From Promethearchaeota archaeon (lineage in GTDB: Archaea; Asgardarchaeota; Thorarchaeia; Thorarchaeales; Thorarchaeaceae): a stretch of DNA of 34,735 nucleotides. The stretch lies in assembly GCA_048939905.1 (NCBI GenBank), contig JBHLPB010000001.1, positions 1 to 34,735 on the forward strand. The letters are read 5' to 3'. The notes under the pieces are model-generated. The model was given only the letters and a program-made list of their open reading frames with translations, did not search any database and was not told the DNA's origin. This document shows positions 15,557-30,298 of this stretch, piece by piece (positions within the stretch are counted from its first letter, which is position 1; the number at the start of each line of letters is the position of its first letter). Position numbers and translations under genes: made by a program.

Positions 15557-16360
15557 GTGTCAGACTTGAATAATCTCGTGATTGTGAAACTGGGAGGATC
15601 AGTCATAACTCACAAGGAATCTTCTCCACCAACAGTTAACAAGGACAACGTATATCGCATCGCTCGTGAACTGCGAACCCACGATGGTGAGCTTATTGTT
15701 GTACTTGGGGGGGGCGCTCACGGCCACCAAGCGGCTCACAAGTATGGTTTCGGAAAGAAATCAACAATTCGAGAAGTTCTGTTAGAAGGAGTTTCTCCAA
15801 TCCGTCATAGCATGACAGTTCTCTCTCTTGAGATTGAACAGATCCTAAACCGTGAAGGCGTCCGAGCGGTCGTACTCCCTCCATTCACCATGGTGACACT
15901 GCAAGACCGGAAGATTGCGGATTTCCCAACCGAGATGATTCAGAGAACCCTTGACTCAGGGCTGGTTGCAGTAACACACGGTGATGTCTGCTTCGACAAC
16001 ATACTTGGTGCTTCAATTCTAAGCGGAGACACAATCGCAGTGTATCTTGCAAAGGAAATGAAGGCAAGAGCACTCTATATTGGAACCGATGTGGATGGAG
16101 TCCTTGAGGATGACCCCCGAGTCAATCCGAAGGCCAAACATATCGAAGTCATTGACACTTCTAGATGGAATGCGATCATAGCAAAGACCGGGCCTTCATC
16201 GGCTACTGATGTGACTGGGGGAATGAAGAAGAAGCTCAATGAGATTTCCACGCTGGTTGAACTAGATATCGACATTGCTATCTTCAACCTCGGTGTTTCC
16301 AATCGTCTCTCATCATTACTCTCTGGAGCTTCCACAGTATGTACGAGAATCCAGATTTAG
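15557..16360 (+). CDS. isopentenyl phosphate kinase (amino-acid-kinase fold, archaeal mevalonate pathway)
   Basis: 267 aa with GTG start. VKLGGSVIT, LGGGAHGH, THGDV, SGDTIAVYLAKEMKA, GTDVDGVL, DVTGGMKKK. Collinear with the M. jannaschii IPK as I recall it. Confidence 0.85.
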   Translation: MSDLNNLVIVKLGGSVITHKESSPPTVNKDNVYRIARELRTHDGELIVVLGGGAHGHQAAHKYGFGKKSTIREVLLEGVSPIRHSMTVLSLEIEQILNREGVRAVVLPPFTMVTLQDRKIADFPTEMIQRTLDSGLVAVTHGDVCFDNILGASILSGDTIAVYLAKEMKARALYIGTDVDGVLEDDPRVNPKAKHIEVIDTSRWNAIIAKTGPSSATDVTGGMKKKLNEISTLVELDIDIAIFNLGVSNRLSSLLSGASTVCTRIQI

Positions 16361-16400: not shown

Positions 16401-19400
16401 CTAACCAGTGGCGGCTGTGACGGAGAGGTATTCCGAGAAGTCATAGAGTTTGACGTTCTCTGGCATCACCATATCTTCCTCCAAGTATTCCGCAGCAGTC
16501 AACACACCGATTATTCGGGTTGACTTGCATGTTCTGCATGCCACCTCGCTATGAATATGGAGCAGGGTATTCAGCTGTTGTTGGTTTGGGAATATAACAT
16601 ACGAAACATCATTGTAGCACAGATCAAAGTATCCGTGACTCCGTTCGACTTCATTTCCTTGTCTACTAAGATCCTTCTCTAGAGCACCTATGACTGAATC
16701 CTTGAACTCTTTCAACATGGCAGAATTGACAATCCAAAGCCCTTCATGGAGTTTCACAAATCTAGGCTTCTCACCTACACGAAGAGCTATGAGGACCTCA
16801 TCGGCCAGCAATTCTGTCAGTGCGCGTTTCCCTTCTTCAACACCGAGTGGAGTTGAGTTCCCCTTGACGGACTGCATTGCAGTTGTTTCAATGAACTCCA
16901 ACAGGACGTCCCACTGTATCTTGCCATCTGACAAATCAACAAAATCTTGGATTAGCTGAAACCACAGACGCATCTGAATAGCACGATTCGTTGCTGATCC
17001 AATATCATGCATCGCTCCAATCAAACCTACCTGTTCAGCCTTGGGAATGTCATCGCCGAGTTTTGCCTGTTCAGATGATGCGGTCGATTCAGTACCTGAT
17101 AGCACCCGCGGAAACAGATTTTCAATCATTGTGTCCAGTGAGCTCGGAAAGGCCGATATGACTGTCACGGGATTGAAGTCCTCCGACCCACTCATTATCT
17201 CCCTCAGCTTCGCAGCTACCACACTTCCTCTCACAATCAGTATAAGCTCAGCTACATTGTTACCTAGGCTTGTCATATATTCGCGAGTCTTGTCAAGCAT
17301 TAATCCCATAGATGATGCTTTCACGTGTTCTGGCAATATCAGAATCGCTTTGTCTTCAATCAGAATCCCAGATCCATCATCTATGTCTTCCTCTCGACTG
17401 ATTCCGAAAAGCTCCAGTTTGTCCATGATATAGCCAGCAATTGCATCTCTTACTGCCCGCAGGCCCCGACCTGGTAATGTGAACACAAAACCTCCGGGAA
17501 CTAGGGAAAGGGCTTCTCTATCAACAGTTCCCAAGGACACCAGATCTCGAATAACCTCATGGATATCTTCTTCTTCCATTCTAGAATCAATCGACCCCAG
17601 AAGCCCTTGTATCTCAATTTGGGTGGCAGAGTCTCTTGATGCAAGAAACGCTACGACATGCGACCCTAGTTCTCCCAATCTGTCAAAGACTGAACTTGCA
17701 TCCCCCTCCGAATCTGCTTCTTCCGATACAACAACAGCCGTATCTTCATAATGTGGTCGTTCCGGCAAGTCAAGTGACTCTCTAGTCAGTGCCTTCTTGC
17801 GTGATTCTGGAGCAAAGGGCCAAGTAGCTAGTTCAAAGGTTTCAATGCCAGGCATGACGATAAGCGCTCTCCCACGCTTCATTGTTCTCAGATACTTCTC
17901 CTGACTATTGTCGAGGGACATGAATCTCGCACCCACGATGCTATCATATGGGAGACGAAATGTCACCTTTGTAGCAGTATTCGCAAGTATGTTGGAAGAA
18001 ACGTTGGGTCTTGTCGAAACAACTATGACTCCCTGCCCAGTTGCTCTCTGAAGCATAACCATTGACTCACCTGTAGTCACATCTGCGGCAGAATGTCTAG
18101 CATAGCTCTCTGGTACAAGATTGCTGGCTTCTTCGAGAACAACCACATGATGGAGACCATCTCTGATGCCTCTTTGAAGTGCGTAGTCGAAGATACGCTT
18201 TGCAATCAAGTTATACAACAGTCTAGCGGCCTCCATGCCGCCTGTTCTTGCAACATGCTGAAGATCAAGAATCACACGCTTGTTCATCAACTCGGAGATC
18301 TTCACTGCATTGGGCCCACCGCCAAGAATCGAACCAAGTGGCTCTCGTGAGAGTATCTCCAGACGATTCGTTACTGCATCACGAGTCATTCCACCAATTC
18401 GATCCTTGCCTGCTAAATCATAGATTGCATCAAGGAGGCTCTGAACCGAGTTTCCTTTCTCCTGCTCCTCTGCAACTCTAAGAACTGCGTTTCGCAAGAG
18501 CTTCTCCATTGCCGGGGATAGTTCTGAGGTGGTTCCTCTCTCAGTAAGCACTTCTCTTAGTATCGCAAATGTCGTATGTGCGTGCCTCTTGAGAGAGTCG
18601 ACCTCGGAATCCATGAAGTCCATCACAAACGATGAGTCGATCCCAGGCCGTAGTACAAGTATCTCTCCATCACATGCGTCCAAGAGGTCTACATAGTCAG
18701 ATCCCTTGATATCAAACACCCACCAAGGTGTCTTTGACTTCCTGCTCAATTCTGCCATAAGGTGTTTGACGAGAGTTGTCTTTCCAGTACCTGTTGCTCC
18801 AAGGACAGCTACATGTTCTCGCAGCCATTCCGTCCTGAGTCCGACAATGTTCAAACGACGCCCACCAAAGACAGCCTGGCCAATCTTCAACTCATTGTCT
18901 ACTAATTCCTTGGCAGGTACTGGGAAGTCGGGAATTTGAGAAGCAGCTATCACAGGCAACTGCTGAACGGGCGTATTCACAAAGGCGACCAACCTACTAA
19001 CATGAATTCTCTGTCGTGTCATGTGCCGACGCAGAAGCATTCGCAAGGCAGTCTTCTTTCTAATTGCCTTTTTCTTCAACCGAATGTTGTCACCGTCACC
19101 CCATATTGAGTGAACTAGTCCGGTAACCCGTTCCTGAATCTCTTGCATGCGTACTGAGGCATCAGACTTCATCAATATGTGGACAGTCGTGTCAAACCAG
19201 CCGGCACTGCTTTGAATCTCTTCATAATGACGTACGAGCTTCCTCTTCCTAGATTGATCAGCTAGTGAGTCCTCTTTCCGTTTCTCTTTCTCACGAATCG
19301 TGCTCCACTGTCTTTCCATTCTCCTCTGCTCTCTTCCTGGCTTTGCTTTCGAGAAAACACAGGAGAAGACCACGTCGCATCCCTGTTTCAATGCTGTAGA

Positions 19401-20174
19401 GATGAATGTACCCACTTGGGAACTCTCTGCCAAGGGCAGAACACGTGGTTCTCCTGTGAGTACCATCAAGCCGTTTCTATCCGTTTCAAAAGAAAGGCCA
19501 GAATCGCCGTCGAACTCGGCATCAATCAGTCTTAGTGACGCTTCTCTGAGGTCCTCACCTTTAAGCTGATGTAGTTCGATGTTATTCAAGGAGGCTAACA
19601 GAATTGCCTCCGTCCGGGTTGCTTCTCTCTTCAACAACTCAGCAATCTCATCTAGAGCCCTTCCCGATGCAGTAATGAAGATACGCAGATAGGGTTCACC
19701 ATTCAAGACGCCCACCTCGTACGTCATATTCACACGTCCATCCATCCCGGCACGCAGTGCAAGCAGGAAACCCGCATCGTATTCTGGACGTTCACTCTCT
19801 CCGATACGGACAGAGCCCGGAACAGATGTGATGTCAAGGCAACACACAGCAACCACGTGCTGATGTAGTCGCAGAACGAGTAAATCGTTGACAATTTCCA
19901 TTAGAGTCTGTTCTGAGAGCAATCTCTGTGTCAGCACGAAGCACCCCGTGGACAGAGGCACTCCACAAACAAAGATCTCCACTATAGACCTGAATGGAAT
20001 CGACACTGAATTCACGAAACCTGCCAGAGGGAGTACATACACAAGAAGGAGATAGAGTGCACAGCACACAGTCCCCAGAATCCAAGTCAATTCTATTCCA
20101 CGCCATAGCCTCGGATGGATTTCCCAATGTGCTTCTTCTCTCATGTCTTCCCTATGCAGATTCTCACTAGACAT
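16401..20174 (-). CDS. giant (1257 aa) membrane-anchored HerA/FtsK-superfamily (DUF87-like) P-loop ATPase with long uncharacterised N- and C-terminal regions
   Basis: ATG start. 2-3 TM helices at aa ~27-82, then ~350 aa of unknown fold with a K/R-rich stretch. HerA-type core: NIVGLRTEWLREHVAVLGATGTGKTT (Walker A, nt 18781-18800), HHVVVLEEAS (Walker B, ~nt 18123-18152), VIVVSTRPNVSSNILANTATKVTFRL (Arg-finger region). The ~470-aa C-terminal extension contains a wHTH-like segment (QIEIQGLL...VIRDLVSLGTVDRE). Confidence 0.8.
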   Translation of the reverse strand: MSSENLHREDMREEAHWEIHPRLWRGIELTWILGTVCCALYLLLVYVLPLAGFVNSVSIPFRSIVEIFVCGVPLSTGCFVLTQRLLSEQTLMEIVNDLLVLRLHQHVVAVCCLDITSVPGSVRIGESERPEYDAGFLLALRAGMDGRVNMTYEVGVLNGEPYLRIFITASGRALDEIAELLKREATRTEAILLASLNNIELHQLKGEDLREASLRLIDAEFDGDSGLSFETDRNGLMVLTGEPRVLPLAESSQVGTFISTALKQGCDVVFSCVFSKAKPGREQRRMERQWSTIREKEKRKEDSLADQSRKRKLVRHYEEIQSSAGWFDTTVHILMKSDASVRMQEIQERVTGLVHSIWGDGDNIRLKKKAIRKKTALRMLLRRHMTRQRIHVSRLVAFVNTPVQQLPVIAASQIPDFPVPAKELVDNELKIGQAVFGGRRLNIVGLRTEWLREHVAVLGATGTGKTTLVKHLMAELSRKSKTPWWVFDIKGSDYVDLLDACDGEILVLRPGIDSSFVMDFMDSEVDSLKRHAHTTFAILREVLTERGTTSELSPAMEKLLRNAVLRVAEEQEKGNSVQSLLDAIYDLAGKDRIGGMTRDAVTNRLEILSREPLGSILGGGPNAVKISELMNKRVILDLQHVARTGGMEAARLLYNLIAKRIFDYALQRGIRDGLHHVVVLEEASNLVPESYARHSAADVTTGESMVMLQRATGQGVIVVSTRPNVSSNILANTATKVTFRLPYDSIVGARFMSLDNSQEKYLRTMKRGRALIVMPGIETFELATWPFAPESRKKALTRESLDLPERPHYEDTAVVVSEEADSEGDASSVFDRLGELGSHVVAFLASRDSATQIEIQGLLGSIDSRMEEEDIHEVIRDLVSLGTVDREALSLVPGGFVFTLPGRGLRAVRDAIAGYIMDKLELFGISREEDIDDGSGILIEDKAILILPEHVKASSMGLMLDKTREYMTSLGNNVAELILIVRGSVVAAKLREIMSGSEDFNPVTVISAFPSSLDTMIENLFPRVLSGTESTASSEQAKLGDDIPKAEQVGLIGAMHDIGSATNRAIQMRLWFQLIQDFVDLSDGKIQWDVLLEFIETTAMQSVKGNSTPLGVEEGKRALTELLADEVLIALRVGEKPRFVKLHEGLWIVNSAMLKEFKDSVIGALEKDLSRQGNEVERSHGYFDLCYNDVSYVIFPNQQQLNTLLHIHSEVACRTCKSTRIIGVLTAAEYLEEDMVMPENVKLYDFSEYLSVTAATG

Positions 20175-20384
20175 TCATCATCACCACATACGAGGGCAAG
20201 GCATGGAGCATTTCCTCTCAATCATACGTCCAGCTACTCGTGTTCCTTGTTGACATATGAACTCCCCCCGTTATCCACCAATGCTCAAACTGACTAAATG
20301 TGGGCTTCTGCATCTGTAGGAGATTAAAAACCAATGAGTGGACTCATGAACAAACCAGAGACCCAATCTTACTGCCCCGTGAGT

Positions 20385-20404
20385 CCGTAATCTGGTAATT
20401 ACGG
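20385..20404 (+). promoter_or_regulatory. inverted repeat CCGTAAT-n6-ATTACGG 3 nt upstream of the surface-protein start codon
   Basis: Perfect 7-bp arms with a 6-nt spacer, ending 3 nt before ATG 20408. Could be an mRNA hairpin or an operator. Sequence observation only. Confidence 0.3.
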
Positions 20405-20407
20405 TCC

Positions 20408-22405
20408 ATGATGCCCAGCAAGATCATCGAGGTGTTACCCCTGAGGAGGCCTACTCTAGCTGTAATCCTTGTAATTGCGCTGTCAATTGTCTTCTCACTG
20501 ACAAATGCAGAGGATGCAATTGCAGAGGAGGATTCCATTGTACTAAGAGGGAGTCTAGTACCTATCGGTGCAAGACTTCTTCAGAATGGCTCTTACGGAG
20601 AGCCTGTAAGTGGGCAGCGTTTGGATTTCTACGATTGTCTGCTTAACTCGTTCATAGGCTCTTCATTGACAGACAACGATGGCCGCGTCTTGATATACTG
20701 GAATCTCACTTTCAATCACCCACTTGGTCCTACCCTTCTCAATGTGACTTTCCAAGGCAACGATACACTCTCTCTTGCTCCATCGTGTCAGTGGACAACC
20801 GTGACAGTTGTGTCAGCAACGCACATAGACTTAGAATACACCCAACAAATCTACCACCCTGGAGACCAAATCCCAATCTTGGTCGAACTTTTCGATGACC
20901 AACGCGAAGCTATCGCGAACGGATTGATAGCCATCTATCATGATGATGTTCTACTTGCTGCAGACCACACAAATGAAACTGGTCAAGTCATATTCAACAT
21001 AGGCTGTAACACATCTTGGTGCTCTCTAGGCAACAACGAAATCAAAGTGGTCTATGAACCAGCTACGTCGAAACATCACAACAGATCTGAGCATTTCATT
21101 ATGGTTGAAGTACAACAGATTCTAACATCAATCGGATTGCAGGATATGAATGGGACCCAGCTCCAGCTAGACGAGTTCCTATGGTTGAAGTTGAATGTGA
21201 GTGCTGAGGGTGAGGGCCTTCCTAATGCCAATCTGAGTGTTCTCATGGATGAGAACTTCCTTTCCAGTACCACAACTAGTCCATTCGGAGTGACTGAGCA
21301 ACTAGTGCACATTGATTACTTGTCGGGCTTAGGTCCGCATAGAGTAAGAATAGAGTATGGTGGCACAGAGCGTTATACGGCCGCTTATCTTGAAGTAGAC
21401 ATTGTAGTGAAAAGCCCAGCCATGGTTTCCATGATGTTGCCAGACTACACAATCCTTGGAGATGAATCTCAGATACAGCTGGAGGTTCACGATTCACTTG
21501 GTAGACCAATCCCAGGAGTCCACATCGCTATCCATGATGAATCCACGAATGAAACAATTAGCATTCCTGTACCGCTCGGATACACGAACACCGAATTCCA
21601 GTATGTCTTCACAGGCCCAACAGGTATCAGAAATCTAATGGCCACAGTATCAGGGAATCCTTATCTCACAAATACAACCCAACTACTTCCTGTGACTGTT
21701 TGGCTTAAGCCAATCATTTCGATTATCGAAACCAACATTCACGGCTATGCGTCCCCCGGACAAGGACTCTCATTTCGTGTCCAGCTGAACTCGAGCGCAA
21801 GTTGCCTTCCGAATCGACTTATCGAGGCCTGGATAAACGACACAGTTCTACCATCTAGAATCACTGATTCACACGGATTTGCGAACGTAACACTATTCGC
21901 CCCTGAAATCCAAGGTCGGTATGTTCTACTTCTGAAGATAAACGGCAGTTTGCCCTCCTATGAACTTTCATCAGTTCTTGAATATGCTCTCGTTGTGAGC
22001 AGAGTAATGCCTGTGCAGGTTGACCTGATACACTACATAGTCAGTCCGGAACTCAGAGAAGTCCGGGTCTATCTCATGATAAGATGTCTGAATGGCACAG
22101 TATTGGATGGAGTGACACTAAACTACGAATGGCTAGCCATCAGCGGATTCACAGTTGCCACGCAATCCGGTATAGCAGAACTCATTCTTCCCATGCCCCC
22201 AAGTGCGGGTGTCTATAGGTTATACCATTACACAGACGGCACGCAGTACCTTCATCCATCTTCGGGACACACTCTTATCGTGGTGTCTGAAGCAGAATTC
22301 CAAGCGGCACAAGGCATTGGAATACCAGGTCTGGTACTGACTCTCTGTGTTTCAGTCGGTCTTGTCGGCATTCCAGCACTATATCGGAAACACCTGATAA
22401 GCTAG
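20408..22405 (+). CDS. large secreted/anchored surface protein with Ig-like beta-repeat modules, heavily N-glycosylation-sequon-rich
   Basis: 665 aa. N-terminal signal/anchor (PTLAVILVIALSIVFSL). Repeated ~90-100-aa beta-rich modules. I count about 17 N-x-S/T sequons. C-terminus IPGLVLTLCVSVGLVGIPALYRKH is a PGF-CTERM-like tripartite anchor (P-G-L, helix, basic). Confidence 0.7.
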   Translation: MMPSKIIEVLPLRRPTLAVILVIALSIVFSLTNAEDAIAEEDSIVLRGSLVPIGARLLQNGSYGEPVSGQRLDFYDCLLNSFIGSSLTDNDGRVLIYWNLTFNHPLGPTLLNVTFQGNDTLSLAPSCQWTTVTVVSATHIDLEYTQQIYHPGDQIPILVELFDDQREAIANGLIAIYHDDVLLAADHTNETGQVIFNIGCNTSWCSLGNNEIKVVYEPATSKHHNRSEHFIMVEVQQILTSIGLQDMNGTQLQLDEFLWLKLNVSAEGEGLPNANLSVLMDENFLSSTTTSPFGVTEQLVHIDYLSGLGPHRVRIEYGGTERYTAAYLEVDIVVKSPAMVSMMLPDYTILGDESQIQLEVHDSLGRPIPGVHIAIHDESTNETISIPVPLGYTNTEFQYVFTGPTGIRNLMATVSGNPYLTNTTQLLPVTVWLKPIISIIETNIHGYASPGQGLSFRVQLNSSASCLPNRLIEAWINDTVLPSRITDSHGFANVTLFAPEIQGRYVLLLKINGSLPSYELSSVLEYALVVSRVMPVQVDLIHYIVSPELREVRVYLMIRCLNGTVLDGVTLNYEWLAISGFTVATQSGIAELILPMPPSAGVYRLYHYTDGTQYLHPSSGHTLIVVSEAEFQAAQGIGIPGLVLTLCVSVGLVGIPALYRKHLIS

Positions 22406-22416
22406 AGAAGTGAATC

Positions 22417-22527
22417 TGGTGCTCCGGCCGGGATTTGAACCCGGGTCGGGGGATCGAGAGTCCCCCATGCTGGGCCGGACTACACACGGCTACATCACGA
22501 TGATTCTCATGACATATCTACCGGAGC
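22417..22527 (-). tRNA. tRNA-Glu (anticodon CUC), CCA-encoded, with a ~30-35-nt insertion (non-canonical intron candidate) between acceptor stem and D-arm
   Basis: Minus strand reads GCTCCGG-[TAGATATGTCATGAGAATCATCGTGATGTAGCC]-GTGTGTAGTCCGGCCCAGCAT-G-GGGGA-CTCTCGA-TCCCC-CGAC-CCGGG-TTCAAAT-CCCGG-CCGGAGC-A-CCA. Apart from the insertion it matches the archaeal tRNA-Glu body. A second GCTCCGG at 22542-22548 is an alternative 5' end. Confidence 0.8.
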
Positions 22528-22631
22528 TAATGGGAACCAGTCCGGAGCGGGAGTGCTCCCTCAAGACTACAAATAAGGCTTTCCTAAGGACGGCCTTTCT
22601 CAGGCAGTAGACCGGTCATAATCGAATGGCA

Positions 22632-22832
22632 CTAGGGAAACAGATTGGTGAAACTACTCCAACTGTCCTCCAGTAGCTGTAGAAGACTTCCTATGATGTC
22701 TTGTGCCCAACCAGTAGCCTGAAGGATAACTGCGATGACTATAGACACAGTGACCACTGCAAGACCCAAGAGGAGACTCTCTTCCACCAAAGGGCCACCT
22801 GATTCGTCTGCGATGAGGTCTCTCTCGTTCAT
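22632..22832 (-). CDS. Flp/Fap-like type IV prepilin (class III signal peptide)
   Basis: 66 aa from ATG 22832 (the track ORF starts at TTG 22862). MNERDLIADESGG|PLVEESLLLGLAVVTVSIVIAVI parallels the Flp leader ...FLKDESG|ATAIEYGLI..., with Gly at the cleavage site, Glu at mature +5, then a hydrophobic helix. Lies 39 nt downstream of the secretion ATPase. Confidence 0.55.
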   Translation of the reverse strand: MNERDLIADESGGPLVEESLLLGLAVVTVSIVIAVILQATGWAQDIIGSLLQLLEDSWSSFTNLFP

Positions 22833-22901
22833 TGACAGTCGCTCCTGAACTGAAATCCCCAAAACCGTATTTTAAGTGCCCCAAAAAACTGGGACACAGA
22901 C

Positions 22902-24599
22902 CTACATTCCCAGGGACAGCATTGGGTGGCCTTCTCCCCATAAACGGTCACTCAAGGAGGGGCTGGGACCTGCATATGACGAGCTCCTCTCGTGTTCTAG
23001 ACACGTTAGAATTGCCTCATAAGCAGGAACATGACTTTCAAGTCCTATCCGATGTGCATGAAACATGAACGCACCATCCTGCGCCCATCTGACAGATTCA
23101 GGGTTTCGCCAATCGTATAGCGTATTGAGGCCAGAGAACACAAGGAACCCATCGACAACTTCTTTCCGGATCTCAACAATCTGGTTCACTCGCCGATATG
23201 ACTTGCCGGGTATCGGTCTTTCCATTGTGACAATCAAATCTATCAGAGCCACATTTGTCTTCTCTATCCCGTGTCCTGAAGTCCATCGAGCCACGAGGCT
23301 TGCTGCAGAATCACTGTGACATGTCTGCATTACCCTAAGTCCGGCTGCGATAGCTTGGAAGAGTGCTTCACTGTGTTCAGCTGTCTGTATCTCACCGAGA
23401 ACGAGATAGTCAGGGGATCGATGAAGGCTCTTGACTATCTCCGACGTCTTGTCAAACCTGTTGCTAATCTCATCTACGGGGTCGACCCGAATTCGGACTT
23501 GGTGGTGATTTGAGAAGACTCTACTCTCAATCGCATCTTCGATGTATATCTTCCTCCACATTGATGGCGTACTCATATCTAGGGCGTTTAGCAAGGTCGT
23601 CTTTCCTGTACCTGGACCTCCCGTTATGGTTATGTTAAATCTGGAACCGACAGCTAACGCCAAGGCCGCGGCAGCTTTCAACCCAAGCGTTCCATTTAGT
23701 ACAAGATTCATGATCGAGAATGGGGTTTCCTTCGCTCGCCGAATCTCCAGATGCACACCGTCGGGACTTAGTGGCGGCGTACTGATAGCTAGACGCAAAG
23801 CTACGTCGTAGAGTCGGAGATTGGTCTTGAGTGAAGGATTCCTTCTGTCCAGATGTAGGTTGCTTTCAGCTCTTACCAGGGTGGCCAGACGCGCGACGTC
23901 GTTCTTGTCTATGACAATATCAGAAGAACATCTCCCGAAACGCTGATGGTCAAAATAGACTGGAACTCCAGGTCGGTCCACATAGACCTCCTCCACTCCA
24001 TCATCCAACAGAATCGGAAGAAACCGTCCTAACACCGATGTCCGACCAGCTACGACGTTCGCTATTCTCTCTCGCGTAGTTTCGCTTATTTCTGGTAATG
24101 TCTGTACAATTCTAGCTGAAACACACTCAGATACATGCTGAAGTCTTTCTGACAGCTCCATTCTGACACTTGGCATGCCCTCTGTGAGTTTCTGTAGATC
24201 ATCACTGAGCCTGTCCAGCAGTCCAAATTCAAGGGGGCTTCTTACCAAAGGGTGAGTTCTATGGAGGATGCCACTCTCACCAATCCTGTCAAAGAAGAGA
24301 GAGAGATAGGGGCCAATGGTGTAGACATCCATGAGCTTGAGATGCGAATCAAGCAGCTGAGCGTAATCATAGATGAAGACTGTTTCCCAATCGTTTCCTT
24401 TCCATGGTGGCCCAACCGGAACCTGCTCTTCAAGACCCCCCACATGAACCAAGTTCTTTTCTGGCTCTAGCATCACGGCCTTGGACTGATTATCATTCGT
24501 AAGAGAGGCAAGTCTGGAGCATGTGGACAACGAGGAGTCTAGACACTCCTTGCACCTTTCTTCCGGGCATCTGAAAACAACCACGTCACATCTCGACAT
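22902..24599 (-). CDS. type II/IV secretion-system ATPase (PilB/FlaI/TadA/VirB11 family) with N-terminal Cys-rich extension
   Basis: 565 aa with ATG start. EVYVDRPG, GVHLEIRR, Walker A ITITGGPGTGKTTLLNAL, Walker B/Asp box KIYIEDAIE, RSPDYLVLGEIQT, His box GLRVMQTCHS. N-terminus has C-x7-C-x4-C-x2-C. Confidence 0.85.
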   Translation of the reverse strand: MSRCDVVVFRCPEERCKECLDSSLSTCSRLASLTNDNQSKAVMLEPEKNLVHVGGLEEQVPVGPPWKGNDWETVFIYDYAQLLDSHLKLMDVYTIGPYLSLFFDRIGESGILHRTHPLVRSPLEFGLLDRLSDDLQKLTEGMPSVRMELSERLQHVSECVSARIVQTLPEISETTRERIANVVAGRTSVLGRFLPILLDDGVEEVYVDRPGVPVYFDHQRFGRCSSDIVIDKNDVARLATLVRAESNLHLDRRNPSLKTNLRLYDVALRLAISTPPLSPDGVHLEIRRAKETPFSIMNLVLNGTLGLKAAAALALAVGSRFNITITGGPGTGKTTLLNALDMSTPSMWRKIYIEDAIESRVFSNHHQVRIRVDPVDEISNRFDKTSEIVKSLHRSPDYLVLGEIQTAEHSEALFQAIAAGLRVMQTCHSDSAASLVARWTSGHGIEKTNVALIDLIVTMERPIPGKSYRRVNQIVEIRKEVVDGFLVFSGLNTLYDWRNPESVRWAQDGAFMFHAHRIGLESHVPAYEAILTCLEHERSSSYAGPSPSLSDRLWGEGHPMLSLGM

Positions 24600-24650
24600 T
24601 TTCTCTCAGCTCAGACAGATGACACATAGTGGGTCAGTCAAGAACTATAC

Positions 24651-25691
24651 CTAAGTATGCTCAGTGAGTACAACAATCTCCCTCTTCATCATCCCAAAGT
24701 GATCACGGATACTGTACTCCGCTACCTTCGTCGCATCGGATGTAAGCTTCTGAGTGAGTACTGAGCGTTTTCCGTGCTCATCTGCAATCAATCGGTCACT
24801 AGCATAAGCCGCAGAAACTGTGAATATGAATGGATTCCGACCGCCTCTTCTCGAGGCCGGTATGATTCCAAGAATCTCAAGCATCTTGTCCCTTAGTGCG
24901 TTCTCATAGGTTCTCAAGTCCCAACCCCGAGCCCGTATCTTTCTTACGACTTTGTCGCTATTCATCAACATCGAGAGAACTCTTGGTACATAGTCCTCCG
25001 GACGACGAATCTGAGGAGCAATGCCTGTCAGTGATTTGAGCTTCAATGCTTCTCTGACTATAGCTCTGACATTCACCCGATGGCCGCACTTCTCGAATGT
25101 ACTAGCTATCTCATCCAGCGTTATCGGTGCACCATCTTTGTACTCACGAACAGCCATAAGCAGACATACTGCAATGAGTAGGATGTTGTTCGTAATCTTA
25201 GTGGACGCTTCCGTGACTATCTTCTTGTAGAGGTATGCAGTACGATCACGCACTTGTTCACTCAACATCAACAACTTCGAAACATGATTGAGCGTTCGGA
25301 GAGCCCTGTATTTTGCCTCGTTTCTACCTATTCTTATTCGTGTACTATAGACCGCTTTTAGACGCTTGAATCTCTTTTGCGATCTCGCTGATAGAGTCTG
25401 CCCCTGTGCATCCTGAAAGTACTTCTCTTTGTGAAAACCAATGTAGCTTCCAAGTCCATCCACGATGTGCATCCGATTACCCAAGGAAACATAGACAGTT
25501 GCATCAGGCTTGTCACTGTGCCGTTCCTCGCCCATTTGATAAGTGGGCAGGACATACTCTCTGGAAATGGCCAGTCCGCACTCTGCACAGACTATGTACC
25601 CCTGGTTCACCACTAGCAGTCCTGAACAGTCAGGACAAGACCACGATGAGCTCTGAATAGCCTCGAATGTTTCATCAATCAAAGACCACAC
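24651..25691 (-). CDS. tfb: transcription initiation factor B (TFIIB-like), divergent paralog
   Basis: 346 aa with GTG start. N-terminal Zn ribbon CPDCSG...CAECG followed by two cyclin-like helical repeats (AKYRALRTLNHVSKLL...; PEDYVPRVLSML...). Ends 51 nt upstream of the ATPase gene on the same strand. Confidence 0.8.
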   Translation of the reverse strand: MWSLIDETFEAIQSSSWSCPDCSGLLVVNQGYIVCAECGLAISREYVLPTYQMGEERHSDKPDATVYVSLGNRMHIVDGLGSYIGFHKEKYFQDAQGQTLSARSQKRFKRLKAVYSTRIRIGRNEAKYRALRTLNHVSKLLMLSEQVRDRTAYLYKKIVTEASTKITNNILLIAVCLLMAVREYKDGAPITLDEIASTFEKCGHRVNVRAIVREALKLKSLTGIAPQIRRPEDYVPRVLSMLMNSDKVVRKIRARGWDLRTYENALRDKMLEILGIIPASRRGGRNPFIFTVSAAYASDRLIADEHGKRSVLTQKLTSDATKVAEYSIRDHFGMMKREIVVLTEHT

Positions 25692-25744
25692 CCAAAGACA
25701 ACGTGCACATTATCGCTAACTAGATTTCAGGCAGGTGCCAGTAC

Positions 25745-25758
25745 GTTTCCTAGGAAAC
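25745..25758. promoter_or_regulatory. perfect 14-bp palindrome GTTTCCTAGGAAAC in the tfb / membrane-protein divergent intergenic region
   Basis: Self-complementary 14-mer, 54 nt upstream of the tfb start. A second inverted repeat, GTCACCG-n8-CGGTGAC, lies at 25828-25849. Confidence 0.35.
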
Positions 25759-25927
25759 AATGTTCGCTGAAATGGACTCTTGATATCTCACAGTCGACGA
25801 TTCTGGCCCTGACTGACAGAAAGAGGGGTCACCGTAACTATTCGGTGACAATCACTGGAGATGACCAATCCTACCCTCTTAGGTTACGATTTTAAGTATG
25901 AGATGAAGGAAACAGACCGATACTACC

Positions 25928-26899
25928 ATGAACAAATACGCGATTGCTTTGATTGTCCTTGCCTGCGTGACTTCTATGGTAAGATTCGGTCACGTCTATC
26001 CTGATAGCTATGCCTATCTCAGCTATATCGACTATTTCGATGGTATCGGAAGTCTCGAAGACGTTTCTACTCCCTTCGCACTAAGACCTGTAATGCCCGT
26101 GGTGGTGTCACTACTAAATGGAGTACTGGACTCTTTCCTAATACTCTCTACTCTGAATCTTGGTTTCGTGTGCCTAATCAGTCTTGGAATGTTCAGGTAC
26201 GTGAAGAACTACCACCTAGATGAAAGGTCGGCCTTTTTGGCAGCGGCCATTTGCACCGTGTCATTCCCAGTTGCTTACTATGGTGCTGTGCCCCTAGTAG
26301 ACGCACTCGCCGTTCTCATAATGCTGCTGGTTGTCATAGGACAAATCGAAGGGAAGAGTGACTGGTTTGCTATGACCTTGCTTCTTTTTGGAGTCATTGT
26401 GAAGGAAGTGGTTCTTTTCATAGGGCTGTACTATGTGCTGAGGGAAATTGACGATTCAAGATTGGAGTCTGACCTTAAGACGGCTTTCTTGGTAGGAGTC
26501 AAGAAACTCTGGATAGTCGTACCAGCTTCGACACTTCACCTGGCCCTCAGGTTTCTGATATTTGGTGGGCTGGCAAATTCGCTTCATTTCCATCTTGGCA
26601 TCTTTGAATCATCATTGAGATTGATTCAGGTTGCAGGAGGTATAGGAATAACGTTTGTTCTGCCGATGACGATCCTCCTGATTACATTCAGAAGAGAGAA
26701 ATGCCAATCTTGGGGAACAGCAAAGAGGGACGCTCTGCTAGGATTCGTATCACTACTTCCCTTGGCCCTTCTGGGTCTGTTCTTCGCCTATTTCGATGCA
26801 CGATTCATATGGCCTCTCTATCTTCCACTGATACCAACAGTCGGCTGTTCAATCAGTATCCTGACTGGTTTGACCAGTCAGGATGAACCTATCATATAA
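25928..26899 (+). CDS. polytopic membrane protein (~9-10 TM), possibly GT-C-type glycosyltransferase-like
   Basis: 323 aa with ATG start, hydrophobic throughout. The first extracytoplasmic loop YPDSYAYLSYIDYFDG...PFALRPVMPVVV resembles the acidic D-x-Y loop plus Pro-rich TM2 entry of GT-C enzymes. The function call is weak. Confidence 0.6.
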   Translation: MNKYAIALIVLACVTSMVRFGHVYPDSYAYLSYIDYFDGIGSLEDVSTPFALRPVMPVVVSLLNGVLDSFLILSTLNLGFVCLISLGMFRYVKNYHLDERSAFLAAAICTVSFPVAYYGAVPLVDALAVLIMLLVVIGQIEGKSDWFAMTLLLFGVIVKEVVLFIGLYYVLREIDDSRLESDLKTAFLVGVKKLWIVVPASTLHLALRFLIFGGLANSLHFHLGIFESSLRLIQVAGGIGITFVLPMTILLITFRREKCQSWGTAKRDALLGFVSLLPLALLGLFFAYFDARFIWPLYLPLIPTVGCSISILTGLTSQDEPII

Positions 26900-27257
26900 T
26901 CGCTAGAAGGAACTTATCCGAGTCGAATGTCTTCCTCTGAGATGCGGCTGGCTTGCTGATTGTAAGAACCAGTCTTAGGCCTCCAATCGCACCAACGACT
27001 TCCAGACCCGCATCCTCCTTGATGCGGAATACCTTTCCTTCCGCATACAGCTTCGCATTTGGGCCTCTTGTAATTGGCTTGGAGTCTATCACTATGGTGA
27101 CTTCATCCTTGGGACTCATTGTGTCACAAAGGACTTCTGGAAGCTCCAAAACTACTCTGGCCCCCTCCTCCTTGCTGACCATGTTCAAGACTTTCAGTTT
27201 CCTAGTTTCAGTGTCCTCAATGGACTCGATTATGGTATTCTTTAGCCTGACCACCAT
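26892..27257 (-). CDS. rpo8: RNA polymerase subunit Rpo8 (Rpb8/RpoG-like), tentative
   Basis: 121 aa from ATG 27257; the ORF is open to 27374, but that start would overlap the neighbouring gene. By-eye collinearity with yeast Rpb8: VVLELPEVL..DEVTIVIDS vs LTLDINVELFPV..DSLTVTIAS; LYAEGKVFRI..EVVGAIGGLRLVL...DKFLLAI vs VMYGTAYKFEE..AVYYSFGGLLMRL...NAYLLIR. Confidence 0.45.
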   Translation of the reverse strand: MVVRLKNTIIESIEDTETRKLKVLNMVSKEEGARVVLELPEVLCDTMSPKDEVTIVIDSKPITRGPNAKLYAEGKVFRIKEDAGLEVVGAIGGLRLVLTISKPAASQRKTFDSDKFLLAII

Positions 27258-27329
27258 AGTACTCAGACGCTCCAATTCCTCAGAAGCAGAGGGCAGTCGG
27301 TCTTGAATTAAAGTTGTCGCTATAATCAT

Positions 27330-29426
27330 GTGGCGTTTTTTAGGGAATACAAGCACCAAGTTGCGGTGGGCCACTTGGAGAAAAGACCGCTGATTGCACT
27401 CATTGCCTCGGTTTCTGTTCTACTGTGCCTAGTCACACCCGTATGCGCATACTATTTCGAGTTTGACTACTTCGAACCGGACAAGCTAGTGTATGAGGTC
27501 GGAGAAACAATCAATATGGTCGCTAGGTTGACAGCAGATTTCAGCTCTCAAGGATGGTGCTACGTTTCCTTTGCTGTTACAACCGATCAAGGTCCAGTGT
27601 CTGACGATAGCTACTTCATTCCTTCATCCACCGAAGCGCAGTTCTTCAACTCATCCTACACAATAGTACCTGAGGACACCTCTCCTGGTCCTGGAGGCAC
27701 AGAGGCATACGTCATATTCACTGTTGAAATATATGACTCATACTCGCAGGGAAACGGCGATACGGTCCAGATAAACATCACAAGAGGATCTCTAGAAGTG
27801 AGTTCACTTTCACCGTTAAGCTTAGAATCCGGTGATAATACGACTCTGGTCTTCAAGATCGCCTCTACACATAATGACACTATTACATACGCGGATTCAC
27901 CCGTAACAGTTACACTACTCGATTCCTTCATGGTTCAGCTGTTCCAGGAACAGACCACAACCTCTTCAGATGGTATGGTTGATTTCAACTGGAATTCTTC
28001 AATGACACCTCCAGGGGATTACACCCTAGCGCTATCAAGCAATGGAACCGAGGATTTTCTTCCCTTCTCAGAGTCATTTCCGGTCACGGTGACACAACCT
28101 TCTTCCAACCTGACAGTGGTTGCCGCGCCGGTTTCGGTACATTGTCAGACTCCAGACGGGGCTCAAGTGGAATTCGTTGACATTTCTGCAGAGCAGCGAA
28201 ATAGAGAAGGAGTACCCATAACCGATAGCACAATCCTGTGGGAAACTGCTTTCTCGGCAGGTACCATGATTCACATCGGAAGTGGAATCTATCATGTATC
28301 CATCCCATTTGAAACAGAACCTGGACTTTCTCATGTCAACCTCACTGCAAACAATCCCCTGTACATGACCGAGTATGAAGGCATTGCAATCCAAGTCCTA
28401 CCTCGGCCTGTACAAATTACGTCAACAGAATCGGGCTGGGATGCACAACGTGGAGGTAACGTATCCATTGCTTTGGATGTGAATTCCGAGTGGTTACTCA
28501 ACCAGTCTATTCCGATACTGCTCAGAGATTCAGAAGGACAACTCGACACGTACACTTCAGTCAATGCCAACACACAGTCTGAGATTCTCCTCAGTATTGA
28601 GCAAGGCGCTTCTCTTGGTCTACACACAGTTACAGTTGAGATTGAAGACACGTCGTATCAGCCTACGGAACCCTCCAGTTTCGAGGTGTTTGTATACGGC
28701 ACAATCAGTGTCCAAATGGATATGGCGGTGGCGTATTATGCAGAAGAACTCGGCATAGCCCTGAATATAACAGATGACAACAGTCAGTCTGTGATCATGA
28801 CCAACCTCAGTCTATGGGTTGATAATCTGACGGTTCCTGTAGCCTATGTCGAGAACGTAGGCGTCTTATCTCCTGTGGAAGTCCTCCTGCCAAGTTCGGT
28901 TTCTCCAGGCTTGCATGACATGGTAGTGGATGTGGAGAGTACTTGGTGTGGAAGGGCCAATATATCAGTGCCAGTAGTGGTCTGGATGCGCACCAGCATT
29001 CTCGTCGTTGTGGGAGATGACTATGAGTCGCCGCAGATGTTAGAATCCAACCAACTCCCGTCGAATATTCAGACAGAACCAGTGATTCTCTCGACGATTT
29101 CCCTTGGTTCTATCATCCGTCCGCCTCCAATCTTAGTCAGCGATACAACATCCACCAAATTACCCACGGCCCGCGAAACTTCCCGAGAGAGCTGGCCCAG
29201 ACTCAGTTCAGGTACCAGCAAAGACTCGACGGACCCCGCGAACTCTGCCAGCTCAGCATCAGGGAAAGGCCAGAGCGTTCTCAACCTGAGGGACCTGATT
29301 TTCACAGAACTGTTTGTCATGACTTCCTCAACGGACCTGGACGTACACCCGTACGAAACGACTCCCCAATCTGCTGATTCCGGTCCAGACACCACTACGT
29401 CAGTCAGGAGCTCTCGTTCATTCTGA
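27330..29426 (+). CDS. large secreted surface protein with Ig-like beta-repeat modules, sequon-rich; 3' ~358 nt overlaps korA antisense
   Basis: 698 aa from GTG 27330. TTG 27375 gives a cleaner signal peptide, MEKRPLIALIASVSVLLCLVTPVCA|YY. I count about 14 N-x-S/T sequons. No C-terminal TM anchor. The last ~120 codons are S/T/P-rich and lie antisense to korA. Confidence 0.65.
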   Translation: MAFFREYKHQVAVGHLEKRPLIALIASVSVLLCLVTPVCAYYFEFDYFEPDKLVYEVGETINMVARLTADFSSQGWCYVSFAVTTDQGPVSDDSYFIPSSTEAQFFNSSYTIVPEDTSPGPGGTEAYVIFTVEIYDSYSQGNGDTVQINITRGSLEVSSLSPLSLESGDNTTLVFKIASTHNDTITYADSPVTVTLLDSFMVQLFQEQTTTSSDGMVDFNWNSSMTPPGDYTLALSSNGTEDFLPFSESFPVTVTQPSSNLTVVAAPVSVHCQTPDGAQVEFVDISAEQRNREGVPITDSTILWETAFSAGTMIHIGSGIYHVSIPFETEPGLSHVNLTANNPLYMTEYEGIAIQVLPRPVQITSTESGWDAQRGGNVSIALDVNSEWLLNQSIPILLRDSEGQLDTYTSVNANTQSEILLSIEQGASLGLHTVTVEIEDTSYQPTEPSSFEVFVYGTISVQMDMAVAYYAEELGIALNITDDNSQSVIMTNLSLWVDNLTVPVAYVENVGVLSPVEVLLPSSVSPGLHDMVVDVESTWCGRANISVPVVVWMRTSILVVVGDDYESPQMLESNQLPSNIQTEPVILSTISLGSIIRPPPILVSDTTSTKLPTARETSRESWPRLSSGTSKDSTDPANSASSASGKGQSVLNLRDLIFTELFVMTSSTDLDVHPYETTPQSADSGPDTTTSVRSSRSF

Positions 29427-30196
29427 ACTTTCCCAGTGATCCTGCGAATCAGGTTGCTGTGAGTTTCAGAATCAGCGGTTTTCCTGAAACCCAATTCGTC
29501 GTGCGTTGATCCAGTGACCAACAAGTCATGTCCATCGCCGAACCGAGGCATTATTGATACTCCGTTGTCAGTCCCACCGTAAGGCGGCTCTCCGCTTCTG
29601 GCGAAGCGACGCTTCACTCTGACATCCCGGTCAGAGTCTATCATGACTTTCTCACGGGAGTGTGCCACGACCTCATCTGACAACAATATCACTGGATGTC
29701 TCAGCTTCTCTGACAAGAAGAATGCACGCAATGTTAGCTCGTAGGTTTCTTGTGCTGAACAAGGTGCCAGCACTACACTCTCGTGATCCCCATGTGTTCC
29801 CCATCCGGCCTGCATGAAATCTCCCTGAGCTACCTTTGTGGCTTGTCCAGTACTAGGGCCCGCTCTTTGTACATTGACAATTACGCATGGGGTTTCAGTC
29901 ATTATTGCATATCCGATGTTTTCCTGCATAAGACTGAAGCCTGGCCCAGAAGTTGCCGTCATTGAGAGTGCTCCTCCCCACGAAGCACCGATGACCGCAG
30001 AGATTGCTGCTATCTCATCTTCCATCTGTAGATAGGTCCCTCCAACCTGTGGAAGACGAGAGGCCATGATCTCTGCAATCTCAGAGGCCGGCGTGATTGG
30101 ATATCCAGCGAAGAATGTACAACCTGCCGCAATTGCAGCTTCCGCACATGCCTGATTTCCCTGCCAGAAGTCTGTTCTTGCGCCTTTAGGGGACAT
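29069..30196 (-). CDS. korA: 2-oxoacid:ferredoxin oxidoreductase, alpha subunit (Kor/Por/Vor type)
   Basis: 375 aa from ATG 30196 (GTG at 30199 is in frame). GNQACAEAAIAAGCTFFAGYPITPASEI, MEDEIAAISAVIGASWGG, TATSGPGFSLMQE, VNVQRAGPSTG. No beta-subunit gene follows. Confidence 0.85.
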   Translation of the reverse strand: MSPKGARTDFWQGNQACAEAAIAAGCTFFAGYPITPASEIAEIMASRLPQVGGTYLQMEDEIAAISAVIGASWGGALSMTATSGPGFSLMQENIGYAIMTETPCVIVNVQRAGPSTGQATKVAQGDFMQAGWGTHGDHESVVLAPCSAQETYELTLRAFFLSEKLRHPVILLSDEVVAHSREKVMIDSDRDVRVKRRFARSGEPPYGGTDNGVSIMPRFGDGHDLLVTGSTHDELGFRKTADSETHSNLIRRITGKVQNERELLTDVVVSGPESADWGVVSYGCTSRSVEEVMTNSSVKIRSLRLRTLWPFPDAELAEFAGSVESLLVPELSLGQLSREVSRAVGNLVDVVSLTKIGGGRMIEPREIVERITGSV

Positions 30197-30298
30197 CACT
30201 AAACATCTCTCTAGGGAATGCGCGGTGTCCCAAGTTCAAGATAAGGATTGACATTCGACACCACCTAACTATCATTCTGTGGAAGAGAGTAACGATAC

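Follow-up and report, generated by a model that had tools for sequence, protein, structure and literature searches.

A Thorarchaeaceae chromosomal neighbourhood encoding a TFB-linked secretion-type ATPase beside a giant HerA-type membrane ATPase

The 34,735-nucleotide stretch of DNA analysed here in full (the window; contig JBHLPB010000001.1, assembly GCA_048939905.1, from a Promethearchaeota archaeon of the family Thorarchaeaceae) contains, at 16401-29426, a series of envelope-related genes in which an earlier note had seen a candidate for an undescribed 13-kb system serving a cell-surface filament or translocation. Open reading frame (ORF) listing, translation and comparison across loci confirmed that all of the genes listed in that note are conserved ORFs. 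The single system did not survive this comparison, as the region comprises two modules with separate phyletic histories, one of which (module A) matches a published gene set. With moderate confidence, we read the 13 kb as a vertically inherited chromosomal neighbourhood of the Thorarchaeaceae that juxtaposes two independent envelope modules.

Module A is a co-directional string on the minus strand, in the order (i) Rpo8 (RpoG/Rpb8; 121 aa, 26892-27257); (ii) a 346-aa divergent TFB/TFIIB paralog (TFB346; 24651-25691), located 51 nt upstream of (iii) a 565-aa ATPase of the T2SSE/VirB11 superfamily (PilB565; 22902-24599); (iv) a 66-aa candidate for a Flp-like mini-prepilin (22632-22832); and (v) tRNA-Glu(CUC) (~22417-22527). 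Module B consists of a 1257-aa DUF87/HerA-type membrane ATPase (16401-20174, minus strand) and a 665-aa secreted glycoprotein with immunoglobulin-like (Ig) repeats (20408-22405, plus strand), which diverge from a 233-bp intergenic region (20175-20407).

When 12 window proteins were compared by tblastn with 17 Thorarchaeaceae loci from nine genera, the block was found to be collinear, one rearranged genome excepted. The genomes used here and below are metagenome-assembled genomes, and absence means that a gene was not found among the genomes searched. Each of the two ATPases has an ortholog in all 24 of the other Thorarchaeaceae genomes first sampled, and wherever one contig holds both, they lie on the same strand, 2.7-4.5 kb apart. 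Thus, the synteny that the earlier note had proposed as a check is present across nine or more Thorarchaeaceae genera. However, the flanking housekeeping genes, GlmS (13194-15017, minus strand) and isopentenyl phosphate kinase (IPK; 15557-16360, plus strand) on one side, and korA (29069-30199, minus strand), followed by tRNA-Gly and Orc1/Cdc6, on the other, are equally collinear, so that conserved order within the Thorarchaeaceae alone is no proof of functional linkage. In one rearranged genome (G019), the region is split into two blocks ~5 kb apart, the first holding the giant ATPase, the 665-aa protein, Rpo8 and the T2SSE ATPase as a contiguous string, and the second holding the TFB, the mini-pilin and the 698-aa protein described in the last section. 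The horizontal origin for which the earlier note had suggested a compositional comparison is not seen: the GC fraction is 0.46-0.51 within the region and 0.44-0.52 in its flanks, and there is thus no compositional island and no hint of foreign origin.

Among the families sampled, the tight adjacency of the two modules is limited to the Thorarchaeaceae; in every other family, the two ATPase genes are either separated by 7-736 kb or located on different contigs. Furthermore, each module is found without the other. Within the same order, a genome of the sister family (G025, 96% complete) encodes a version of module B and has no ortholog of TFB346 and none of PilB565. The reverse holds for the four genomes of family f3 and for six of the seven genomes of family f12, all of which carry module A but yielded no relative of the giant ATPase. 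Because the sister-family genome has module B without A, family f3 has A without B, and the ATPases are unlinked outside the Thorarchaeaceae, we consider module B independent of module A. The caution expressed in the earlier note, that linkage had been deduced from proximity only, was justified, as the region splits.

The TFB-linked ATPase and the candidate mini-pilin

PilB565 is, as had been proposed, a PilB/VirB11-family ATPase: it matches Pfam T2SSE at 78 bits (cut-off 24.9), and its closest PDB entries are GspE of A. fulgidus (2OAP, 1e-26), followed by FlaI and CpaF (1e-16 each). Its Walker A motif reads GGPGTGKT, and the Walker B motif and His boxes are intact. It does not reach the curated model of the TadA/CpaF clade, its best NCBIfam match being TIGR03819 (TadA family) with 100 bits against a cut-off of 373. 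Its N-terminus carries a cysteine cluster (C11, C16, C19 and C27; C-x4-C-x2-C-x7-C) that is kept across the Thorarchaeaceae, and orthologs in other Asgard archaea have N-domains of the form CxxC...CxxC. PilB565 is the top T2SSE match in each Thorarchaeaceae genome checked. The genome to which the window belongs (G000) encodes one full-length T2SSE ATPase; its second T2SSE-like gene is shorter (~430 aa) and a weaker match.

Family scans and profile searches agree with the earlier note that TFB346 is a genuine and divergent TFB paralog. It has a zinc ribbon, a conserved HIVDGLGSYI block and one recognisable cyclin repeat, while its C-terminal repeat is divergent (RGGRNPF...AEYSIRDH). Thorarchaeaceae genomes hold several canonical TFB genes besides this family, and these score 55-84 bits with the Pfam TFIIB cyclin-repeat model, compared with 22-26 bits for the TFB346 paralog. 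A profile of the TFB346 family separates the two groups cleanly, giving 220-540 bits for orthologs and 46-84 bits for other TFBs.

We determined how consistently these two genes are found together using 111 Asgard genomes of at least 85% completeness, drawn evenly from 25 families. The TFB346 family is present in 100 of these genomes, usually as a single copy, and the T2SSE ATPase family occurs in 104; 98 genomes have both families and five have neither. The two genes share a contig in 84 genomes, where they lie no more than 5 kb apart in 60 and no more than 15 kb apart in 83. At eight of 12 loci from other Asgard families, a TFB346 ortholog (27-42% identity, E 1e-30 to 1e-88) was detected within about 10 kb of the best T2SSE match, in several cases directly adjoining it. 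At several loci from these other families, genes for the T2SSF platform protein also lie beside the ATPase gene, often split in two (~280 + 230 aa). The best 80 loci in a TFB profile scan of genome contigs are all labelled as Asgard, with the exception of one 2.1-kb contig labelled Thermoplasmatota, and the matches listed in homolog searches with the TFB and mini-pilin profiles are mainly Thorarchaeota-labelled or unnamed proteins.

The Rpo8-like gene had been described as an interruption of the gene island. The gene is real, encoding 121 aa from a start at Met40 of a 160-aa ORF, and, far from being an interruption, it is conserved together with the TFB-ATPase pair. A profile built from 13 orthologs matches S. 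pombe Rpb8 (E 3.6e-7) and archaeal Rpo8/RpoG (E 3.8e-5 and 4.4e-5) over the full length. Rpo8 adjoins the module in all of the Thorarchaeaceae loci compared, and Rpo8-like ORFs from two further Asgard families could be aligned with it. In one genome (G024), the ortholog is the only RpbG-like match.

The 66-aa protein consists of a variable, charged leader, a predicted cleavage site (G↓GPLVEE, the arrow marking the cleaved bond), a single hydrophobic helix and a short amphipathic tail. Across nine genera the sequence ...DESG↓GPLVEESLLLGLAVV... is invariant from the Gly onwards, with Gly at -1 and Glu at +5, while the leader varies; the mature part is 64-98% identical. The Flp-like prepilin of the earlier note stands as far as this variable leader, invariant motif and hydrophobic helix are concerned; the Pfam Flp family does not recognise it. 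Homologs with the motif G/SPLVEEGLL (first residue Gly or Ser) lie beside ATPase or platform genes at four loci from four other Asgard families. Scans of the 66-aa protein with Pfam and NCBIfam gave no match. Its family has at least 508 members; none of the 120 relatives listed has a Pfam domain, and the few of them that bear a name are nearly all annotated as hypothetical protein.

Upstream of the mini-pilin gene, a G-rich element resembling a TFB recognition element, a TATA box (TTAAAATA, 22868-22875) and an AGGAG ribosome-binding site were identified, and a block TTTTGgGGGCAgTTAAAATAC is conserved upstream of the orthologs across genera. Judging from these motifs, the interval 22833-22901 (minus strand) may constitute a promoter of the gene's own. 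Non-coding blocks conserved across genera also lie upstream of the TFB paralog (25692-25927; orthologous regions L025-L040), namely GAATAGTTTCGG..CTCTTTCTGTCAGTC about 150 nt upstream and CTGAAATCTAGTTAGG about 20-35 nt upstream. A perfect palindrome in the same interval (GTTTCCTAGGAAAC, 25745-25758) was rejected as a conserved element, as it decays outside the closest species.

The remaining parts expected of a pilus assembly system are encoded elsewhere in the genome. A single T2SSF platform gene (508 aa), recognisable as T2SSF/TadC, is located on another contig (C190) and is unlinked to the window, as is the A24 prepilin peptidase gene, of which there is one per genome, also on a different contig. 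Near the platform gene (L045, 4968-6192) are two tandem paralogs of 184 and 208 aa, the C-terminal halves of which appear Rpo5/RpoH-like by eye, each behind an additional N-terminal region of ~100 aa. In the closest complete genome (CP070658.1, G004), a canonical TFB gene lies ~1.2 kb from the A24 peptidase gene (C1:992468-994491), which may be coincidence.

The gene set of module A resembles type IV pilus (T4P) subclade 4D, described in Pyrobaculum and Thermoproteus (Thermoproteales) by Makarova, Koonin & Albers in 2016 (PMC4858521). According to that description, the 4D ATPase (arCOG05558) bears a small, Cys-rich N-domain and is encoded with a TadC-like membrane protein that has diverged, with a TFIIB homolog (arCOG05559) and with RPB8; the system lacks a pilin or other secreted protein, and was speculated to have a role in "some transcription-related pathway" (PMC4858521). 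Module A likewise combines a secretion-type ATPase carrying a small N-terminal Cys domain with a TFIIB homolog in the same string and an adjoining RPB8/Rpo8, and we regard it as the Asgard version of the subclade 4D system, a type IV filament (T4F)-like system, the gene sets having been compared by published description. Two of its parts differ from those of 4D. First, a short Flp-like prepilin candidate lies beside the ATPase gene here and across Asgard archaea, whereas 4D was described as pilin-less. Second, the Asgard platform is a recognisable T2SSF/TadC protein, unlinked in the Thorarchaeaceae and adjoining and split in other Asgard families, whereas the 4D platform is an otherwise unrecognisable protein with four or five transmembrane (TM) segments (arCOG05557/13890); no adjacent diverged TadC-like gene of this type was found in the window.

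A second comparison is with bacterial Tad/Flp (type IVc) pili and the Epd-like pili of methanogens. Shared with module A are the ATPase (TadA/CpaF/FlaI-like), the platform (of the TadB/C type), the A24 peptidase and the pilin or pilin candidate, which is very short, has one helix and carries a G↓xxxxE site. In contrast, the 66-aa protein has no match at E<=1 to either the Pfam Flp_Fap family (PF04964) or the class III signal family (PF04021), the parts of module A are distributed over three loci, and module A has a TFB paralog, a linkage to Rpo8 and the additional Cys-cluster N-domain on its ATPase.

Both the surface machinery and the transcription-factor repertoire of Asgard archaea, the closest known relatives of eukaryotes, are barely characterised. 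Here, a divergent TFB paralog proves to be near-universal in the phylum and is linked to a pilus-type ATPase in almost all cases, often with Rpo8 as a neighbour; the very short pilin candidate that accompanies this ATPase is a feature absent from published accounts of 4D. A 2026 census in PLoS Genet reported 4D-specific parts in only 17 Asgard genomes, scattered and unlikely to cooperate (PMC13705601). Our counts point to a far broader and closer association of the TFB with the ATPase in Asgard archaea (both families in 98 of 111 genomes), and that view was probably too pessimistic. Module A is a known, though uncharacterised, kind of T4F-like system in a phylum-wide variant having a recognisable platform and a candidate pilin.

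Two further observations were made at loci outside the Thorarchaeaceae. In several other Asgard families (L058, L063, L064, L061 and L059), the TFB/ATPase module sits amid information-processing genes, encoding the large subunit of PolD (DP2) with an intein, RpoB, an LSm-fusion protein, uL23 (its N-terminus recognised by eye) and Orc1/Cdc6; these surroundings suggest an ancient conserved neighbourhood. In addition, proteins of ~125-140 aa having an N-terminal LEK followed by a hydrophobic segment adjoin the T4F ATPase at several Asgard loci outside the Thor lineage (L060, 11558-11953; L061, 12957-13352; L068, 9189-9611; L069, 8377-8751). These proteins, of which no counterpart was seen within the window, may represent an additional component, either pilin-like or accessory.

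The giant ATPase and its surface glycoprotein

The giant ATPase and the glycoprotein paired with it are the less understood half of the region. The ATPase consists of two N-terminal hydrophobic (TM) segments, which we take to recall VirB3-VirB4 fusions, an N-domain, a P-loop motor with a Walker A motif (GATGTGKT) and a Walker B-like motif (VVVLEEA), and a C-terminal extension of ~430 aa. PF01935 (DUF87/HerA; 55 bits, cut-off 23.2) is the only Pfam family above threshold, and together with the hydrophobic segments it bears out the membrane HerA-type ATPase of the earlier note. FtsK_SpoIIIE (PF01580) remains below threshold (16.1 bits against 24). All curated NCBIfam models matched, an antiphage HerA model among them, score far below their cut-offs, including VirB4_CagE (TIGR00929; 28 bits, cut-off 643), CedB (NF041017; 15.7, cut-off 700), CedD (NF053655; 38.8, cut-off 600), which is the best though very weak NCBIfam match, and the HerA equivalog models (17-33 bits, 17 for NF040937, against cut-offs of 800). 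Searching PDB by sequence, whether with the single protein or with a profile, gave weak HerA matches only.

Structural models of medium confidence were also obtained. One, covering residues 95-1257, was built with AlphaFold2 from a 21-sequence alignment (mean predicted local distance difference test score, pLDDT, 69) and compared with PDB using Foldseek. The top 12 matches are all TrwK/VirB4 of the R388 type IV secretion system (T4SS), with E values of 4e-15 to 4e-9 and alignments of ~800 columns that cover the N-domain and the motor; these are followed by Sulfolobus HerA (9e-9), the defence-associated and Deinococcus HerA proteins, and then the VirD4-type TrwB and Cagbeta (~1e-5), with FtsK in 41st place (4e-3). 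Because the TM-scores are low (0.2-0.5 among the matches, 0.2-0.3 for TrwK/VirB4), assignment to the VirB4 clade is tentative, and the likeness to T4SS and Ced machines seen in the earlier note holds only so far as the modelled fold appears VirB4-like, while the corresponding family models remain far below their cut-offs.

The C-terminal 433 residues were also modelled by themselves (pLDDT 75); in this model, two winged-helix-like units surround an alpha/beta domain and are followed by a Cys-containing alpha+beta domain. This part has no significant fold match in PDB; its weak matches are mostly to proteins that contain winged helices (MarR, HxlR, PadR, RTP, Pol III C82 and MukE/F). Family resemblance and the winged-helix-like tail suggest that the ATPase may translocate DNA.

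The 665-aa partner has a Sec-type signal peptide, numerous sequons, Ig repeats, a C-terminal TM anchor and a sub-threshold CarboxypepD_reg match. Its orthologs (26-81% identity) adjoin the giant ATPase at all 17 Thorarchaeaceae loci compared, and the divergent arrangement is kept throughout the family, except in the rearranged genome, as well as in the sister-family genome. In the latter, a 941-aa version of the ATPase is divergently paired with an adjoining 648-aa glycoprotein, the N-terminal 170 aa of which are 31% identical to the 665-aa protein (E 2e-15). The interval between the two genes (20175-20407) is presumably a shared promoter region, through which the ATPase and the anchored glycoprotein would be co-regulated.

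Full-length orthologs of the giant ATPase (1230-1313 aa) are found only in the Thorarchaeaceae, in 24 of 24 genomes, and the ATPase-glycoprotein pair is confined to the Thorarchaeales. Distant relatives in other Asgard lineages are 25-36% identical, mostly in the motor, and as a rule each stands alone amid housekeeping genes, for instance those for phosphoenolpyruvate (PEP) synthase, phosphoglycerate kinase (PGK) and the A and B subunits of the A-type ATPase. At one such locus (L051, G036 C1:598000-618000), the segment 7056-16080 carries a 1253-aa relative between the genes for the A (intein-containing) and B subunits of an A-type ATP synthase. In 34 of the 111 Asgard genomes no relative was found; for nine families, such as f3, f14 and f21, this applies to every genome sampled.

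As in TrwK (R388) VirB4 and in CedB/CedD (PMC11868833, PMC11823120), a membrane-associated motor of the FtsK-HerA superfamily appears to lie behind a large N-domain in the giant ATPase. Unlike these proteins, the giant ATPase has the ~430-aa winged-helix-like C-terminal addition, is chromosomal and vertically inherited, and has an Ig-repeat surface glycoprotein as its partner in place of VirB2-, VirB6- or CedA-like neighbours; no VirB2/CedA1-like pilin or VirB6/CedA-like polytopic partner is conserved across 18 loci. With HerA, of both the HerA-NurA and the defence type, it shares the central DUF87/HerA domain, and HerA hexamers are its second-best structural matches; it differs in being membrane-anchored and approximately twice as long, and in having no NurA, Mre11 or Rad50 genes nearby. 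No defence effector was found near it either, its neighbours being IPK and the surface glycoprotein. Readings as a defence system or a viral element were dropped because PADLOC and PHROGs gave generic P-loop matches only. We read module B as a putative membrane translocase of VirB4/HerA-like type that is paired with a surface glycoprotein in a single lineage.

Two modules or one apparatus

For module A, we favour a minimal Flp/Epd-like filament, the expression of which would be coupled to a dedicated TFB. The genome's single A24 peptidase would cut the 66-aa prepilin at G↓GPLVEE; the hexameric ATPase, acting on the single TadC/T2SSF platform, would polymerise the cleaved mini-pilin into a thin filament; and the divergent TFB would serve as a dedicated initiation factor or regulator of the module. 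Module B would be a hexameric VirB4/HerA-like translocase anchored by its two TM segments, the winged-helix-like C-terminal domains of which may bind nucleic acid.

Several points weigh against this picture. The filament of module A is predicted from its genes, the candidate pilin matches neither of the relevant Pfam families, and, according to Makarova et al., 4D systems may have ceased to be pili (PMC4858521). In the closest complete genome, the T2SSF platform is detectable only by its C-terminal ~150 residues (C1:1175761-1176201, 88% identity, in a 222-aa open frame), the ATPase, TFB and mini-pilin genes being intact. For module B, the VirB4-like assignment comes from a medium-confidence model with low TM-scores. 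Finally, the proximity of the two ATPases is kept throughout the Thorarchaeaceae and partly survives the rearrangement described above; this invariant adjacency, together with the contiguous string in the rearranged genome, allows for selection to keep the modules adjacent and hence for a functional tie between them.

A different view of module A keeps the same composite architecture but takes the module for a membrane motor, derived from a T4F and since turned to a transcription-related process, and not for a pilus. The Cys-rich N-domain, the TFB and Rpo8 would then act jointly, for example by sequestering or activating the TFB at the membrane, and the 66-aa protein would be a membrane subunit that does not polymerise. 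Such a role was proposed for 4D from its linkage to TFIIB and RPB8 (PMC4858521). It would fit a TFB family that is near-universal and usually single-copy, the information-processing genes that surround the module elsewhere in Asgard archaea, a mature mini-pilin that is unusually conserved for a surface filament subunit, and a platform gene that is unlinked here and apparently truncated in the closest complete genome. However, the 66-aa protein bears the full class III/Flp-type signature (a charged, variable leader, Gly at -1 and Glu at +5), the cognate peptidase and the T2SSF platform are retained in the genome, and in several Asgard families the ATPase, the split platform and the mini-pilin form a canonical, contiguous T4F operon. 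Furthermore, the adjacency of Rpo8 may be historical, because this Rpo8 is the genome's ordinary RNA polymerase subunit. We regard the repurposed motor as a possible account, at clearly lower probability than the minimal filament.

Sulfolobales Ups and Ced genes are under the control of TFB3. An Asgard analogue, made of different parts, would unite the two modules into a TFB-controlled apparatus for cell contact and DNA exchange in the Thorarchaeaceae, comprising the pilus, the VirB4-like winged-helix translocase and the surface adhesins. We consider this combination unlikely. The fixed ATPase spacing in 24 of 24 Thorarchaeaceae genomes, kept through the rearrangement, is what such an apparatus would lead one to expect, and the VirB4-like fold, the faint preference for CedD among NCBIfam models and the tandem winged-helix-like C-terminus would be compatible with it, as would the combination of Ups T4P with the VirB4-like CedB and CedD in Sulfolobales (PMC11868833, PMC11823120). 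However, the modules have separate phyletic patterns, their tight linkage is absent outside one family, and within that family the flanking housekeeping genes are equally syntenic; the Ced and VirB4 family models are all far under their cut-offs; and no VirB2-, CedA- or VirB6-like partner is conserved, the sole polytopic protein being an insertion found in three species.

Still less probable is a housekeeping role for module B, as an FtsK-like membrane DNA pump that would segregate or resolve chromosomes at division and would lie beside module A only incidentally. Its N-terminal TM anchor, FtsK-HerA-superfamily motor and C-terminal winged-helix-like domains would suit such a pump, as would the housekeeping surroundings of its single-gene relatives in other Asgard archaea and the presence of Orc1/Cdc6 ~10 kb from the locus. 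However, the sub-threshold FtsK_SpoIIIE score and a fold search in which the FtsK motor falls far behind VirB4, HerA and VirD4 argue against it, no relative was found in nearly a third of the Asgard genomes sampled, and the conserved pairing with a surface glycoprotein would be left unexplained.

A horizontally acquired island or remnant integrated conjugative element, which VirB4-like and VirB11-superfamily ATPases beside a tRNA gene superficially resemble, is effectively refuted by a GC content like that of the flanks and by the same chromosomal position between GlmS/IPK and KorA/Orc1 in nine or more genera, no integrase, relaxase or repeats and no plasmid- or phage-type family matches having been seen.

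The value of the two-module reading is mostly corrective, in that experiments should treat the proposed 13-kb island as two modules.

Other genes of the region

The tRNA-Glu(CUC) gene named in the earlier note is present at the 3' end of the module A string, on the minus strand. Its 5' acceptor strand is separated from the D-arm by a non-canonical stretch of ~31-36 nt (an insertion or intron), because of which ARAGORN misses the raw sequence; Rfam gives a partial tRNA match (22428-22485), and removal of the insertion in silico restores tRNA-Glu(ctc) in ARAGORN.

The polytopic membrane protein counted as a component in the earlier note (323 aa; 25928-26899, plus strand) exists as an ORF but lies outside both modules and any conserved set. 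At this site, between the TFB and Rpo8 genes, it was found only in the window's genome, the closest complete genome and one further genome (G011). It has no family match in Pfam or NCBIfam, and a 34%-identical paralog is encoded elsewhere in the window's genome. It is a recent lineage-specific insertion and no component of either system.

Translation confirmed that two large, sequon-rich, Ig-like secreted proteins are encoded, as had been noted: the 665-aa partner of the giant ATPase and a 698-aa protein (27330-29426, plus strand), the affiliation of which is uncertain. The two show no detectable similarity to each other (E 0.27) and were rejected as paralogs, and in Pfam and NCBIfam both give sub-threshold Ig-like matches only. 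The N-terminal ~390 aa of the 698-aa protein are conserved beside Rpo8 in the Thorarchaeaceae. Over 358 nt (29069-29426), the S/T-rich 3' end of its ORF coincides with the 3' end of korA on the other strand; this overlap is kept within the genus, whereas in other genera the match extends only over the first ~390 aa and there is no overlap.

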